From: a virus | Taxonomy: Duplodnaviria; Heunggongvirae; Uroviricota; Caudoviricetes | IMG/VR virus record: IMGVR_UViG_2737471846_000007 | Reading direction: 5' to 3' (one strand) | DNA length: 4,791 nucleotides | Shown here: piece after piece, positions 872 to 4,332 of the stretch | Layout of the letters: every line of letters begins with the position of its first letter | Position numbering within the stretch: position 1 is the stretch's first letter | The notes under the pieces: generated by a model | What the model was told of the DNA's origin: nothing | Database searches by the model: none | Seen by the model: the letters and a program-made list of their open reading frames with translations, nothing else | Program-made: the position numbers and the translations under genes

Positions 872-1429
872 TCATGCAGCCTCCCGACGGGCAAGAATCC
901 TTGAGCCGAACGCCATCAACTCTCCACGATCAACGGTCGTAAAGTGGCAGTGTGTACGGGGGTATGGGTGCCAGATAATGAGCATCGAGCCTTTATTATT
1001 TCCACTGACGGGTTTCTCAGTGAGTGGGTTAATAAATGCCAGTCGTCCTGCCGTGATGAATCTGACCTCACTGGCGGTTTGTATCGCTTCATGAAACCAT
1101 CCGACAGATGTGTCAGCAGGCAATAACATTACACATCCCACACTACTGAATTTGTTTTCAGTGGCTGCCTTTTTCACAAAAGGGGAAATATTGCTGTATG
1201 GTGGATTCAACCAGACATAACCAGAGGCATATCCCATTGCTTCAGGCCATGAAGTGGTTAATGTGTTCTGCTCCTGTGAGATAAAAAGCCGACATAGTCG
1301 GTTTTTTTCGCTGGCGGCAGCATCAAGTTGAAAAACGAACTCTGCATGAAGCGCAGCAAAAATCTCTGGTGGTGTGCGCCAGCTGTCGCGATGTTCGGCA
1401 GGAGTATTGCTTCCGGTGAAATCAGTCAT
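872..1429 (-). CDS. Phage-type DNA N6-adenine methyltransferase (Dam family, ~185 aa)
   Basis: Protein contains the N6-adenine MTase catalytic motif IV NPPY (VWLNPPYSNI) in an N-terminal position typical of small phage Dam-like enzymes; GGGGG SD-like run upstream of ATG 1429-1427; stop TGA 874-872. Confidence 0.85.
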   Translation of the reverse strand: MTDFTGSNTPAEHRDSWRTPPEIFAALHAEFVFQLDAAASEKNRLCRLFISQEQNTLTTSWPEAMGYASGYVWLNPPYSNISPFVKKAATENKFSSVGCVMLLPADTSVGWFHEAIQTASEVRFITAGRLAFINPLTEKPVSGNNKGSMLIIWHPYPRTHCHFTTVDRGELMAFGSRILARREAA

Positions 1430-1583
1430 ACAGCCCCCGTTTATTATTTATCTCCTCAGCCAGCCGCTGTGCTTTCAGGGGATTTCGGATAACAGAAAGG
1501 CCGGGAAATACCCAGCCTCGCTTTGTAACGGAGTAGACGAAAGTGATCGTGCCTACCCGGATATTATCGTGAGGATGCTTCAT
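1422..1583 (-). CDS. Small coupled ORF (53 aa) in the position of lambda orf60a
   Basis: ATG at 1583-1581 overlaps exo stop TGA (1582-1580) as ATGA; GGGGAG SD 8-9 nt upstream; stop TGA at 1424-1422 lies inside the first codons of the methyltransferase gene. Translation [53 protein letters not shown]. Below the ORF-track size cutoff. Confidence 0.5.
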
Positions 1584-2260
1584 CGCCATTGCTCCCCAAA
1601 TACAAAACCAATTTCAGCCAGTGCCTCGTCCATTTTTTCGATGAACTCCGGCACCATCTCGTCAAAACCCGCCATGTACTTTTCATCCCGCTCAACCACG
1701 ACATAATGCAGTCCTTCACGCTTCATACGCGGGTCATAGTTGGCAAAGTACCAGGCATCTTTTCGCGTCACCCACATGCTGTACTGCACCTGGGCCATGT
1801 AAGCCGACTTTATGGCCTCGAAACCACCGAGCCGGAATTTCATGAAATCCCGGGAGGTAAACGGGCATTTCAGTTCAAGGCCGTTGCCGTCACTGCATAA
1901 ACCATCGGGAGAGCAGGCGGTGCGCATACTTTCGTCGCGATAGATGATCGGGGATTCAGTAACATTCACGCCGGAAGTGAACTCAAACAGGGTTCTGGCG
2001 TCGTTCTCGTACTGTTTTCCCCAGGCCAGCGCCTTAGCATTAACTTCCGGAGCCACACCGGTGCAAACCTCAGCCAGCAGGGTGTGGAAGTAGGACATTT
2101 TCATGTCAGGCCACTTCTTTCCTGAGCGGGGCTTTGCTATCACGTTGTGAACTTCTGAAGCGGTGATGACGCCGAGCCGTAATTTGTGCCATGCATCATC
2201 CCCCTGTTCGACAGATCTCACGTCGATCCCGGTACGCTGCAGGATAATGTCCGGTGTCAT
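1580..2260 (-). CDS. exo: Lambda-type exonuclease (Red-alpha, 5'-3' dsDNA exonuclease), 226 aa
   Basis: Protein [40 protein letters not shown]...GEQWR is recognisably lambda Exo at full length; AAGGTGG SD upstream of ATG 2260-2258; 4-nt ATGA overlap with bet stop. Confidence 0.97.
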
Positions 2261-3042
2261 GCTGCCACCTTCTGCTCAGTGGCTTTCTGTTTCAGGAATC
2301 CGAGAGCTTTCACTGCTTCGACCTGTGTCAGTTCTGACGATGCGCGAATGTCGCGGCGAAATATCTGGGAACAGAGCGGCAATAAGTCGTCATCCCATGT
2401 TTTATCCAGGGCAATCAGCAGAGTGTTAATCTCCTGCATGGTTTCATCGTTAACCGGAGTGATGTCGCGTTCCGGCTGACGTTCTGCAGTGTATGCGGTA
2501 TTTTCGACAATGCGCTCGGCTTCATCCTTGTCATAGATACCCGCAAATCCGAAGGCCAGACGGGCACACTGAATCATGGCTTTATGCCGTAACATCCGTT
2601 TGGGATGCGACTGCCACGGTCCGGTGATTTCTCTGCCTTCGCGGGTTTTGAATGGTTCGCGGCGGCATTCATCCATCCACTCGGTAACGCAGATCGGATG
2701 ATTACGGTCTTTGCGGTAAATCCGGCATGTACAGGATTCATTGTCCTGCTCAAAGTCCATGCCATCAAACTGCTGGTTTTCATTGATGATGCGGGACCAG
2801 CCATCAACGCCCACCACCGGAACGATGCCGTTCTGCTTATCAGGGAAGGCGTAAATTTCTTTCGTCCACGGATTAAGGCCGTACTGGTTGGCGACGATCA
2901 GCAATGCGATGAACTGCGCATCGCTGGCATCGCCTTTAAATGCTGTCTGGCGAAGAGTGGTGATCAGTTCCTGTGGGTCGACAGAATCCATGCCGACACG
3001 TTCAGCCAGCTTCCCAGCCAGCGTTGCGAGTGCTGTACTCAT
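2257..3042 (-). CDS. bet: Lambda-type single-strand annealing protein Beta (Red-beta), 261 aa
   Basis: Protein [66 protein letters not shown]... matches lambda Bet over its full 261 aa; lies between gam and exo as in lambda. Confidence 0.97.
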
Positions 3043-3047
3043 CCGTT

Positions 3048-3344
3048 TTATACCTCTGAATCAATATCAACCTGGTGGTGAGCAATGGTTTCAACCATGT
3101 ACCGGATGTGTTCTGCCATGCGCTCCTGAAACTCAACATCGTCATCAAACGCACGGGTAATGGCTTTTTTGCTGGCCCCGTGGCGTTGCAAATGATCGAT
3201 GCATAGCGATTCAAACAGGTGCTGGGGCAGGCCTTTTTCCATGTCGTCTGCCAGTTCTGCCTCTTTCTCTTCATGGGCGATCTGCTGGTAGTGACGCGCC
3301 CAGCTCTGAGCCTCAAGACGATCCTGAATGTAATAAGCGTTCAT
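3048..3344 (-). CDS. gam: RecBCD inhibitor Gam, short (GamS, 98 aa) form only
   Basis: Protein [98 protein letters not shown] is lambda GamS with a few substitutions; AGGAG SD 8 nt upstream of ATG 3344-3342. The upstream GamL-type start (ATG 3465) is in a different frame here. Confidence 0.93.
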
Positions 3345-3419
3345 GGCTGAACTCCTGAAAATGGCTGTGAAAATATCGCCCGCGAAATGCCAGGCTGATT
3401 AGGAAAACAGGAAAGGGGG

Positions 3420-3563
3420 TTAGTGAATGCTTTTGCTTGATCTCAGTTTCAGTATTAATATCCATTTTTTATAAGCGTCGACGGCTTCACGAAACATCTT
3501 TTCATCGCCAATAAAAGTGGCGATAGTGAATTTAGTCTGGATAGCCATAAGTGTTTGATCCAT
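3420..3563 (-). CDS. kil: Host-killing / FtsZ-inhibiting protein Kil (47 aa)
   Basis: [54 protein letters not shown] 9 nt upstream of ATG 3563-3561; overlaps cIII 3' end by 32 nt, as I recall for lambda. The 89-aa extension in the ORF track (start 3689) would run through cIII in another frame and is not used. Confidence 0.85.
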
Positions 3564-3696
3564 TTTTTGGGACTCCTGGCTGATTAAGTATGTCGATAAG
3601 GCGTTTCCATCCGTCACGTAATTTACGGGTGATTCGTTCAAGTAAAGATTCGGAAGGGCAGCCAGCAACAGGCCACCCTGCAATGGCATATTGCAT
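3532..3696 (-). CDS. cIII: Lysogeny regulator CIII (54 aa, inhibitor of host FtsH/HflB)
   Basis: Translation from ATG 3696-3694 gives [54 protein letters not shown], recognisable as lambda CIII; AAGGAG SD 6 nt upstream. Below the ORF-track size cutoff, found by manual translation. Confidence 0.93.
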   Translation of the reverse strand: MQYAIAGWPVAGCPSESLLERITRKLRDGWKRLIDILNQPGVPKNGSNTYGYPD

Positions 3697-3715
3697 GGTG
3701 TGCTCCTTATTTATA

Positions 3716-3743
3716 CATAACGAAAAACGCCTCGAGTGAAGCG
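3716..3743 (-). promoter_or_regulatory. Hairpin plus U-tract in the ea10-cIII spacer (minus-strand RNA CGCUUC-ACUC-GAGGCG then UUUUUCGUUAUG); terminator-like or cIII leader structure
   Basis: Seen directly: plus 3728-3743 cgcctcgagtgaagcg forms a 6-bp stem (one G-U pair on the transcript) with a 4-nt loop; plus-strand A-run 3723-3727 gives the U-tract. Sits about 20-47 nt upstream of the cIII start. Confidence 0.35.
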
Positions 3744-3768
3744 TTATTGGTATGCGGTAACGCCGCGC

Positions 3769-4137
3769 TCAGGCGGCTTTGATAGTCATATCATCTGGAT
3801 CAAATATTCCTGATGTATCGATATCGGTAATTCTTATTCCTTCGCTACCATCCATTGGAGGCCATCCTTCCTGACCATTTCCATCATTCCAGTCGAACTC
3901 ACACACAACACCATATGCATTTAAGTCGCTTGAAATTGCTATAAGCAGAGCATGTTGCGCCAGCATGATTAATACAGCATTTAATACAGAGCCGTGTTTA
4001 TTGAGTCGGTATTCAGAGTCTGACCAGAAATTATTAATCTGGTGAAGTTTTTCCTCTGTCATTACGTCATGGTCGATTTCAATTTCTATTGATGCTTTCC
4101 AGTCGTAATCAATGATGTATTTTTTGATGTCTGACAT
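3769..4137 (-). CDS. ea10: Early protein Ea10 (lambda ea10-like, 122 aa)
   Basis: Protein MSDIKKYIIDYDWKASIEIEIDHDVMTEEKLHQINNFWSDSEYRLNKHGS... recognised as lambda Ea10; GAGGA SD about 10 nt upstream of ATG 4137-4135; located upstream of cIII as in lambda. Confidence 0.85.
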   Translation of the reverse strand: MSDIKKYIIDYDWKASIEIEIDHDVMTEEKLHQINNFWSDSEYRLNKHGSVLNAVLIMLAQHALLIAISSDLNAYGVVCEFDWNDGNGQEGWPPMDGSEGIRITDIDTSGIFDPDDMTIKAA

Positions 4138-4154
4138 CTGTTCATATCCTCATA

Positions 4155-4184
4155 GATAAAAAATCGCCCTCACACTGGAGGGCA
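4155..4184 (-). terminator. Intrinsic terminator-like hairpin immediately upstream of ea10 (minus-strand RNA GCCCUC-CAGUGU-GAGGGC, extendable to 8 bp, then UUUUUU)
   Basis: Seen directly: plus 4165-4182 gccctcacactggagggc is a perfect 6-bp GC-rich inverted repeat; plus-strand A-run 4156-4161 provides the U-tract on the minus-strand transcript. Confidence 0.5.
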
Positions 4185-4245
4185 AAGAAGATTTCCAATA
4201 ATCAGAACAAGTTGGCTCCTGTTTAGTTACGAGCGACATTGCTCC

Positions 4246-4273
4246 GTGTATTCACTCGTTGGAATGAATACAC
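4246..4273. repeat. Perfect 9-bp inverted repeat GTGTATTCA-N10-TGAATACAC in the intergenic spacer
   Basis: Seen directly at 4246-4254 and 4265-4273, with the spacer at 4255-4264; lies between two terminator-like hairpins in non-coding sequence. Confidence 0.6.
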
Positions 4274-4301
4274 AGTGCAGTGTTTATTCTGTTGTTTATG
4301 C

Positions 4302-4328
4302 TAAAAATAAAGGCCGACTATGCGGCCT
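4302..4328 (-). terminator. Intrinsic terminator directly after the 149-aa membrane-protein gene (minus-strand RNA AGGCCG-CAUAGU-CGGCCU then UUAUUUUUAG)
   Basis: Seen directly: plus 4311-4328 aggccgactatgcggcct is a perfect 6-bp GC-rich inverted repeat beginning 5 nt after the TAA stop (4335-4333); plus-strand A-rich run 4302-4310 gives the U-tract. Confidence 0.6.
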
Positions 4329-4332
4329 GAAA

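Follow-up and report, generated by a model that had tools for sequence, protein, structure and literature searches.

Recurrent module junctions and exchangeable cargo genes in the leftward early operon of a lambdoid prophage remnant of Escherichia coli

The literature offers two models for the mosaic genomes of lambdoid phages. In one, exchange takes place at short conserved boundary sequences; in the other, illegitimate joints form at random and selection keeps those located at gene ends (PMC3233612). As cited there for HK620 (Clark et al. 2001), a boundary sequence is a short conserved intergenic sequence with differing flanking genes and is proposed as a site of homologous exchange. In experiments, homology-tolerant recombination by Red-type recombinases gave rise to mosaics of lambdoid phages and prophage remnants (PMC3945230). 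For the exo-xis region, orf60a-orf63-orf61-orf73-ea22 has been described as a conserved block (PMC8614690; this is also the source of the names orf73 and orf61). Here, we analyzed a stretch of 4,791 nt from the Caudoviricetes record IMGVR_UViG_2737471846_000007 (the window), in which the Red genes exo, bet, and gam and their lambda-like neighbours are interrupted and flanked by other genes. Two of the five genes of the conserved block are swapped in it.

Every gene of the window is encoded on the minus strand. Its best chromosomal match, which extends from end to end at 99.9% identity, is in E. coli 2013C-4830 (NZ_CP027325, 3216203 to 3220993). There, the window genes belong to a remnant of approximately 12 kb adjoining icd, which comprises int, xis, an IS3-family element, the window genes, a Ral pseudogene, a LexA-type repressor, a Cro-like gene, a second insertion sequence (IS), and tail-fibre fragments. 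At least 80% of the window is present in 75 of 5,426 complete E. coli genomes, and the full window is present at no less than 99.8% identity in four. The core is present in approximately 4,300 E. coli genomes and in 384 phage records. Very probably, the window represents a section of the leftward early (pL) operon in a short lambdoid prophage remnant beside icd in Shiga-toxigenic E. coli (STEC), and an ordinary lambdoid mosaic whose small modules were drawn from a common gene pool.

For comparison with lambda (NC_001416), blocks were taken from BLAST and differences were listed from the alignment. Window positions 1427 to 4321 correspond to lambda 31194 to 34087 (2,896 columns with 61 substitutions and three single-base indels; 97.8% identity), and positions 286 to 875 correspond to lambda 30418 to 31008 (96.4% identity). 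No similarity to NC_001416 was detectable by BLAST in window positions 1 to 285, 876 to 1426, and 4322 to 4791. The modules are as follows.

18-285, minus strand: non-lambda block in the position of ea22; contains a DUF4222 gene (open reading frame [ORF] 15-215; Pfam DUF4222, E=8e-20) truncated by an IS end
286-875, minus strand: second lambda-homologous block (lambda 30418-31008), with orf73 and an orf61-like gene
876-1426, minus strand: Dam cargo cassette, encoding an orphan phage Dam-type N6-adenine methyltransferase (coding sequence 872-1429, 185 aa)
1427-4321, minus strand: main lambda-homologous block, from orf60a through the spacer
3427-3755, minus strand: kil-cIII sub-module of the main block, with a single difference from lambda in 329 positions; recurrent breakpoints (3426 and 3755) flank it
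3756-4155, minus strand: ea10 sub-module, present or absent whole; missing in Gally, Stx2_EH2086, and five IMG/VR loci, in which 3755 abuts 4156
4156-4321, minus strand: conserved non-coding spacer, counterpart of lambda tL2A and of the Sf6 "bsq4 boundary sequence"
4322-4791, minus strand: membrane cargo cassette (gene 4333-4782, 149 aa, two predicted transmembrane [TM] segments; phrog_3054, function unknown)

An earlier note on this DNA, made from the sequence alone, had predicted sharp breakpoints instead of uniform divergence, with one junction in 1422 to 1583 and another in 4138 to 4332. Indeed, the edges are abrupt, and junctions were observed at 1426/1427 and 4321/4322. Since lambda homology resumes at 875 and continues to 286, the window has four lambda junctions, not two: approximately 285/286, 875/876, 1426/1427, and 4321/4322. 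Each was resolved to a few bases, and at each of them high identity changes abruptly to no detectable similarity, as is typical of a module junction. The leftmost junction (approximately 277 to 286) falls within the final codons of orf73, and the DUF4222 gene lies beyond it, where lambda has ea22.

Between the junctions, the order, sizes, and overlaps of the genes from orf60a to ea10 and the following tL2A spacer are those of the lambda early-left operon (NC_001416, 30418 to 34381).

263-481, minus strand: orf73, TraR/DksA-type zinc finger (Pfam zf-dskA_traR)
580-795, minus strand: orf61-like gene (phrog_303)
1422-1589, minus strand: orf60a/DUF1317
1580-2260, minus strand: exo, 226 aa, 5 aa differences from lambda
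2257-3042, minus strand: bet, 261 aa, 2 aa differences from lambda
3048-3344, minus strand: gam (GamS), 98 aa, 3 aa differences from lambda
3420-3563, minus strand: kil, 47 aa, no aa differences from lambda
3532-3696, minus strand: cIII, 54 aa, no aa differences from lambda
3769-4137, minus strand: ea10/DUF2528, 122 aa, 2 aa differences from lambda

With exo, bet, and gam in lambda order, at high identity, and with lambda-like overlaps (exo/bet, 4 nt; kil/cIII, 32 nt), this is a lambdoid early-left operon with a Red module. The match in gene sizes and overlaps from exo to ea10 had been anticipated in the earlier note, as had one extra base in the gam leader, which is located at window position 3358. 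The other indels of the main block are a base absent after 1437 and an extra base at 4316. The note had also called the core identical to lambda, which the substitutions and indels contradict. Divergence from lambda is uneven (approximately 2.7% in exo-bet, 0.3% [1/329] in kil-cIII), and therefore the core is a composite and no lambda-identical unit. The near-identity of kil-cIII to lambda could reflect either more recent sharing or stronger constraint by the overlapping genes and an RNA element. This element, the known cIII thermoregulator, is also present in lambda.

3651-3709, minus strand: Lambda_thermo RNA (RF01804), cIII thermoregulator; full-length Rfam match, 88.5 bits

Against this shared background, the window differs from lambda in three cargos: a Dam gene in place of orf63, an additional membrane-protein gene between ral and the tL2A/bsq4 spacer, and a DUF4222 gene in place of ea22. 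In addition, single-base differences from lambda affect the GamL leader, orf61, and the orf60a tail.

The junctions recur in related loci. We surveyed 80 IMG/VR loci that encode 98 to 100% identical Exo and compared them with the extended source locus. Their homology blocks ended at the following window positions.

18/19: 28 loci
219 and 259: 7 and 10 loci, respectively
286: 43 loci
875: 60 loci
1419-1427: 71 of 76 informative loci
3426-3429: 35 loci
3755 joined directly to 4156 (ea10 absent whole): 5 loci
4244: 1 locus
4278: 7 loci
4288: 6 loci
4314/4315: 3 loci
4321: 8 loci
4325: 1 locus
4328: 4 loci

These breaks lie at gene boundaries: the median distance to a gene end was 18 nt for the 21 junction classes, compared to approximately 80 nt for random positions (P=5e-5). 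In other genomes, the same junctions were found with differing partners, in loci that are not independent of each other. Furthermore, Dam and orf63 were each found with lambda-type and with other kil regions, and each with the DUF4222 block and with other left blocks. Since all four combinations are present for both pairs, the modules reassort. The start at window position 18 is common to many phage and prophage matches.

At the left slot, the exchange is precise. A segment of 185 bp of lambda (orf63, 31009 to 31193) corresponds to 551 bp in the window, and the edges are formed by a common ATG (1429 to 1427) and a common ATGA stop/start overlap (875 to 872; lambda 31008 to 31005). On the transcribed strand, the sequence up to the swap is AAACGGGGGCTGT-ATG in the window and AAACGAGGGGCTGT-ATG in lambda, with the start codon in common. 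The gene orf60a is kept with an altered tail, and orf61 and orf73 are kept in the second lambda block. Thus, of the replacement of orf61 and orf63 by a methyltransferase proposed in the earlier note, only that of orf63 holds. The assignment of the product of 872 to 1429 is supported by matches to the Dam profiles PF05869 (190.2 bits; cutoff, 28.1) and TIGR01712 (163.7 bits; cutoff, 97.05), by the best PADLOC match ("orphan methyltransferase"), and by the catalytic (D/N)PP(Y/F) motif, which is present as LNPPYS (NPPY) in the translation. Presumably, methylation by this protein would shield phage DNA from restriction.

The same slot holds various genes in the surveyed loci: orf63/DUF1382 in 62, Dam in 5, a DndB-family protein (354 aa) in 5, a 250-aa protein in 3, and a protein with a PAPS-reductase domain (414 aa) in 1. 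The 250-aa protein is identical to gp34 of phage SfI; its RefSeq name, queuine tRNA-ribosyltransferase, was not confirmed by Pfam or NCBIfam. These five unrelated cargos begin at one ATG, after the conserved orf60a end ...AATAATAAAC and a Shine-Dalgarno sequence. A DNA-modification gene at the common start codon fills the orf63 slot in approximately one-sixth of the surveyed loci, and the Dam cassette is present in 244 to 312 of the 5,426 E. coli genomes. A limited literature search yielded no paper on DNA-modification genes occupying the orf63 slot; searches on DpdA in combination with lambdoid phages yielded nothing, and those on an accessory-gene hot spot beside exo yielded nothing specific. 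An isolated phage, Escherichia phage PhiR30_1 (PV340558), matches window positions 18 to 3426 contiguously at 98.8% identity and has the same Dam gene (99.8%) in the identical slot between orf60a and orf61. Homology stops at 3426, the kil region and everything to the right of it consist of other modules, and there is no IS at 17/18.

Several details of this region vary. The C-terminal tail of Orf60a (window 1422 to 1437) differs according to the cargo because the reading frame extends into the cassette, and only residues 1 to 50 match the DUF1317 profile. The length of the C-run ahead of the cassette start codon varies among loci. The strongest terminator-like hairpin of the window (1497 to 1519, minus strand; nine pairs and a T-rich tail) lies within orf60a, 70 nt from the Dam junction. 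It corresponds to lambda 31265 to 31287, where a misc_recomb site is marked at 31266/31267 in the lambda record, and we take it to be lambda tL3. An apparent second genomic context for the methyltransferase gene, an E. coli match beside "replication protein P", was rejected; it is a deletion inside a DLP12-like remnant, and the left-hand neighbours are unchanged.

At the right slot, identity with lambda extends across the full length of the ea10-ral spacer as far as 4321; the corresponding lambda base is the first of the ral stop codon. The product of the adjacent gene matched phrog_3054 and nothing in Pfam, NCBIfam, or PADLOC. As noted earlier from the sequence alone, genes foreign to lambda (the Dam-family methyltransferase gene 872 to 1429 and the two-TM membrane ORF 4333 to 4782) lie immediately outside the core; the accompanying claim that the membrane protein stands in place of ral failed. 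Lambda homology returns in the source genome, beginning 21 nt past the window end (window-equivalent positions 4812 to 4906 and 4875 to 5033 match lambda 34059 to 34152 and 34225 to 34381), and the frameshifted Ral pseudogene annotated in RefSeq lies there, approximately 60 nt upstream of the membrane-protein gene. Therefore, relative to lambda, this gene is an insertion between ral and the spacer. The upstream ral (window-equivalent 4841 to 4938) lacks approximately 72 bp that are found in lambda and Stx2_EH2086; here, the two BLAST blocks overlap by 32 query bases (window-equivalent 4875 to 4906), which suggests a deletion between short repeats.

The membrane cassette is bracketed by direct repeats of 18 to 19 nt, AAAAATAAAGGCC(G)AC(T/C)AT, at 4303 to 4321 and at approximately 4822 to 4840 (the second placed by BLAST offset, about 30 nt past the window end). 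Each repeat consists of the 3' arm and T-run of a terminator-like hairpin; one such hairpin follows ral, and the other follows the membrane-protein gene.

4311-4328, minus strand: terminator-like hairpin immediately downstream of the membrane ORF (AGGCCG-CATAGT-CGGCCT and then TTATTTTT)

The lambda junction 4321/4322 sits in the loop of this hairpin: the 3' arm and T-run are common with lambda, and the 5' arm comes from the cargo. The membrane-protein gene thus seems to end with a terminator-like element of its own. Juhala et al. (2000) are said to have described morons as additional genes that separate two genes neighbouring each other in related phages. Like morons, the membrane-protein gene separates two elements that adjoin in lambda, ral and the spacer, and is followed by a terminator-like hairpin of its own. 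Unlike morons, it has no promoter-like site upstream: a scan with the consensus found no sigma-70-like minus-strand site upstream of 4782 in the window or in the extended source locus. In addition, its G+C content (39.6%) does not set it apart from the spacer (39.8%) and ea10 (40.2%).

The membrane cassette was also found at 92 to 98% identity in Gally, HF4s, Stx2_EH2086, and Oslo, beside differing neighbours, and in 130 to 244 of the 5,426 E. coli genomes. The cargos of the right slot comprise Ral, an 86-aa Ral-like protein, an Nmad5-family protein, a 156-aa protein, a 293-aa protein, and the membrane protein; their stop codons lie 0 to 33 nt from their own break. In the P22-like Shigella podovirus Sf6 (AF547987; annotation of Casjens et al. 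2004), the order is the same as at our locus, with ral (gene 35), a membrane-protein gene (gene 34), and the conserved spacer; in contrast, gene 33 takes the place of ea10 downstream of the spacer, and gene 34 matches the window protein at its ends only. In this comparison (gene 34, L008 4012 to 4434), the first 39 and the last 24 residues, approximately, are nearly identical, and the middle with both predicted TM segments is unrelated, an intragenic mosaic. Many P22-like Salmonella phages also match the membrane-protein gene at its ends only. Across both slots, the alternative cargos with a family assignment (loci L056, L084, L085, and L047) are mostly linked with restriction evasion or with the modification of DNA or nucleotides: Dam, the DndB-family protein, the PAPS-reductase-domain protein, and the RefSeq-named queuine tRNA-ribosyltransferase at the orf63 slot, and Ral and the Nmad5-family protein at the ral slot.

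The spacer itself is conserved. Positions 4138 to 4321 are approximately 97% lambda-like (5 differences in 184 nt), and 4138 to 4332 fold as RNA well beyond chance expectation (z score of -4.3), with three hairpins (4328 to 4311, 4283 to 4236, and 4185 to 4164, the last with a T-run). An Rfam search detected the cIII thermoregulator as the only match, with none in the spacer, and a literature search on tL2/ral found nothing.

4164-4185, minus strand: terminator hairpin, tL2A homologue, with T-run 4163-4156; the ea10 module begins right after the T-run
4236-4283, no strand assigned: long imperfect inverted repeat with 22-nt arms (82% complementarity); breaks at 4244, 4278, and 4288 occur in other phages

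Window positions 4158 to 4398 match Sf6 at 93% identity and span two elements of its GenBank annotation, which by BLAST offset correspond to window 4157 to 4185 ("terminator; homology to phage lambda; tL2A") and 4166 to 4278 ("bsq4; boundary sequence"). The spacer was found in 331 phage records, among them lambda-like, Stx-converting, and P22-like phages, and in 298 of these it is at least 95% identical. The matches end repeatedly at 4156/4158 and at 4267, 4278, 4288, 4315, 4321, and 4328. Because it is shared across phages with recurrent match ends, the spacer is a conserved meeting point of differing neighbours and not a replaced segment. As a conserved non-coding stretch with non-homologous flanks and a homologue annotated in Sf6, it behaves like the boundary sequences described for lambdoid phages. 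The Dam junctions differ from these in that they lack such a non-coding stretch and are flanked by conserved coding sequence together with start and stop signals. The suggestion that the second junction coincides with the hairpin-rich spacer was correct in that it lies in the loop of the hairpin 4311 to 4328. This is, however, the far edge of the spacer, which itself is lambda-like.

Breakpoints thus recur at gene ends, with diverse cargo and with reassorting modules. To account for this pattern, we propose, as the most likely course, that rare illegitimate joints would create new gene combinations, of which only those at gene ends would survive selection because neighbouring genes and translation signals stay intact. 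A cassette between conserved neighbours would then be moved by homologous recombination in its flanks between co-resident lambdoid phages or prophages. The flanks would be orf60a-exo and orf61 on the left and the 165-bp spacer (95 to 99% conserved) on the right, and the Red system encoded by the block, or RecA, would carry out the exchange. The outcome would be a free reassortment of modules. Expression of the cargo would be driven by pL, with antitermination by N. The joint lies at a different position for each cargo, determined by the stop codon or Shine-Dalgarno sequence of that cargo, and this speaks for separate creating events with subsequent selection. The data fit this combination of selected illegitimate joints and homologous movement via conserved flanks. 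Accordingly, the idea that the junctions are sites of cargo exchange is borne out by the recurrent breaks with differing genes in the surveyed loci; of the lambda genes named in it, only orf63 was swapped and ral was not, and what is conserved is the spacer rather than the break itself. The junctions may be mechanistic hot spots of recombination or positions at which joints are tolerated. Several points weigh against our proposal. Seven junction classes fall within one 85-bp stretch of the hairpin-rich spacer, which selection for gene ends alone does not predict, and Dam and orf63 have the identical 8 nt before the ATG and ATGA after the gene, which could mean a microhomology-targeted exchange. 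The surveyed loci are the nearest relatives by Exo and include many near-duplicates from E. coli genomes, so that the counts represent sequences and not independent events, and BLAST ends may be a few bases off. Moreover, a mechanism is not observable from sequence.

The first two of these points bear on the targeted exchange of the Susskind-Botstein and Clark model (cited in PMC3233612), in which boundary sequences or hairpins initiate recombination, and the mechanism, not later selection, sets the junctions. In line with it, the 165-bp non-coding spacer is conserved at 95 to 99% in otherwise unlike phages and contains bsq4 in Sf6, all seven junction classes in 4244 to 4328 lie in or beside two hairpins, the lambda junction is in a hairpin loop with the 3' arm and T-run duplicated on either side of the membrane cassette, and the Dam and orf63 cassettes have GGGGCTGTATG upstream and ATGA downstream in common. 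However, the junction differs with each cargo and tracks the stop codon of that cargo (0 to 33 nt) instead of a single fixed site, the other cargos of the orf63 slot have different Shine-Dalgarno spacers and downstream joints at 615, 701, and 777, and no recombinase other than Red is nearby. The earlier note had asked whether breakpoints coincide with hairpins or palindromes. On the right they do, since the junction is in a hairpin loop and other phages break in or beside 4236 to 4283. On the left, the junctions are a start codon and a stop codon with no hairpin or palindrome, and the palindromes that were found (1083 to 1100, 1832 to 1853, and 3816 to 3829) are intragenic and away from the junctions. 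Hairpins may therefore have a role in targeting breaks in the right-hand cluster, and such a role is inapplicable on the left; as a general explanation, we consider targeted exchange unlikely. For the right slot, it is quite possible, if not our preferred view, that the order ral, membrane-protein gene, and spacer is the older state and that lambda-type phages lost the gene by deletion between the direct repeats of 18 to 19 nt. Recombination between these repeats would yield exactly the lambda joint, and the order of ral, gene, and spacer is also found in Sf6, Stx2_EH2086, and three IMG/VR loci. In HF4s, on the other hand, the membrane-protein gene directly follows N without ral, and in the window locus a stretch of approximately 35 nt ahead of its ATG is similar to the 3' end of N in HF4s, a hint of capture from such a context and subsequent placement downstream of ral. 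The right-hand event may have been a gain in the lineage of the window or a loss in lambda, and both may have occurred more than once.

Two other explanations find little room in the data. A lambda-identical core with both flanks replaced wholesale (a methyltransferase for orf61 and orf63, a membrane protein for ral), as the earlier note had interpreted its partly correct observations, would agree with the presence of both junctions in the predicted intervals and with non-lambda genes abutting the core. It is nevertheless very improbable, and in these details refuted, given the return of lambda homology at 875 to 286 and past the window end, the presence of orf61, orf73, and orf60a, the ral pseudogene upstream of the membrane-protein gene, and the uneven 97.8% identity of the core. 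Even more improbable, to the point of being negligible, is an assembly chimera with mis-joined reads of several co-resident prophages. STEC genomes do carry several similar lambdoid prophages, and the best-matching genomes have three matching places each; yet the full window is found at 99.8% identity or above in four independent complete genomes and to at least 80% in 75, and isolated phages have the same joints (PhiR30_1 at the Dam slot; Sf6, Gally, and HF4s at the joint of membrane-protein gene and spacer). Beyond the proposed combination of selected joints and homologous movement, one could speculate, with rather low probability, that both slots bracket the Red-kil-cIII block with interchangeable anti-restriction cargo: a start-codon-precise slot after orf60a (Dam, DndB-like, PAPS-reductase-like, RefSeq-named queuine tRNA-ribosyltransferase, or orf63) and a Ral/Nmad5/membrane-protein slot, both served by Red-dependent, microhomology-guided exchange. 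If this were true, dedicated slots for modification and evasion would qualify the description of orf60a-orf63-orf61-orf73-ea22 as a "conserved block".

Because PhiR30_1, Sf6, the phages with the membrane cassette, and E. coli genomes hold the same arrangements, both the phenomenon and this instance of it are already known. Descriptions of pervasive lambdoid mosaicism, of junctions at gene boundaries, and of conserved boundary sequences date back to 2000 to 2004, and the window carries little weight as a discovery. Its practical value is an exact module map of the much-used lambda Red and exo-xis region, which could be of use for annotation and for experimental work on how temperate phages evade restriction. 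A mildly fresh point is that the slot of orf63, a member of the "conserved block" of the literature, is taken by a DNA-modification gene in some one-sixth of the surveyed loci; the map shows at least five alternative occupants, orf63 among them, and the alternatives are mostly DNA-modification genes.

The comparison also shows that the lambda reference carries minority alleles in two features, the GamL frame and the short orf61. The extra base at 3358 disrupts the 138-codon GamL frame of lambda and leaves the 98-codon GamS frame unaffected. It is the majority allele in the related loci (38 with the extra base versus 17 with the lambda form), and the GamS frame is the only gam frame that is generally conserved. 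At window position 729 in the orf61-like gene, the T-run of lambda is one T longer; 44 of 45 related loci have the window form (T6), which agrees with PHROG 303 along its length. The 61-codon orf61 of lambda therefore looks like an unusual frameshifted allele.

Finally, the left end of the window is formed by a mobile element.

1-17: terminus of an IS3-family element, terminal sequence TAGACTGGCCCCCTGAA...; the IS body is at 7685-9017 of the extended source locus (L002)

We take this element to resemble IS2. In related loci without the IS, window-equivalent position -1316 is joined to 18 with a 5-nt overlap, which represents the target duplication. The insertion shortens the DUF4222 gene from 92 to 66 codons.

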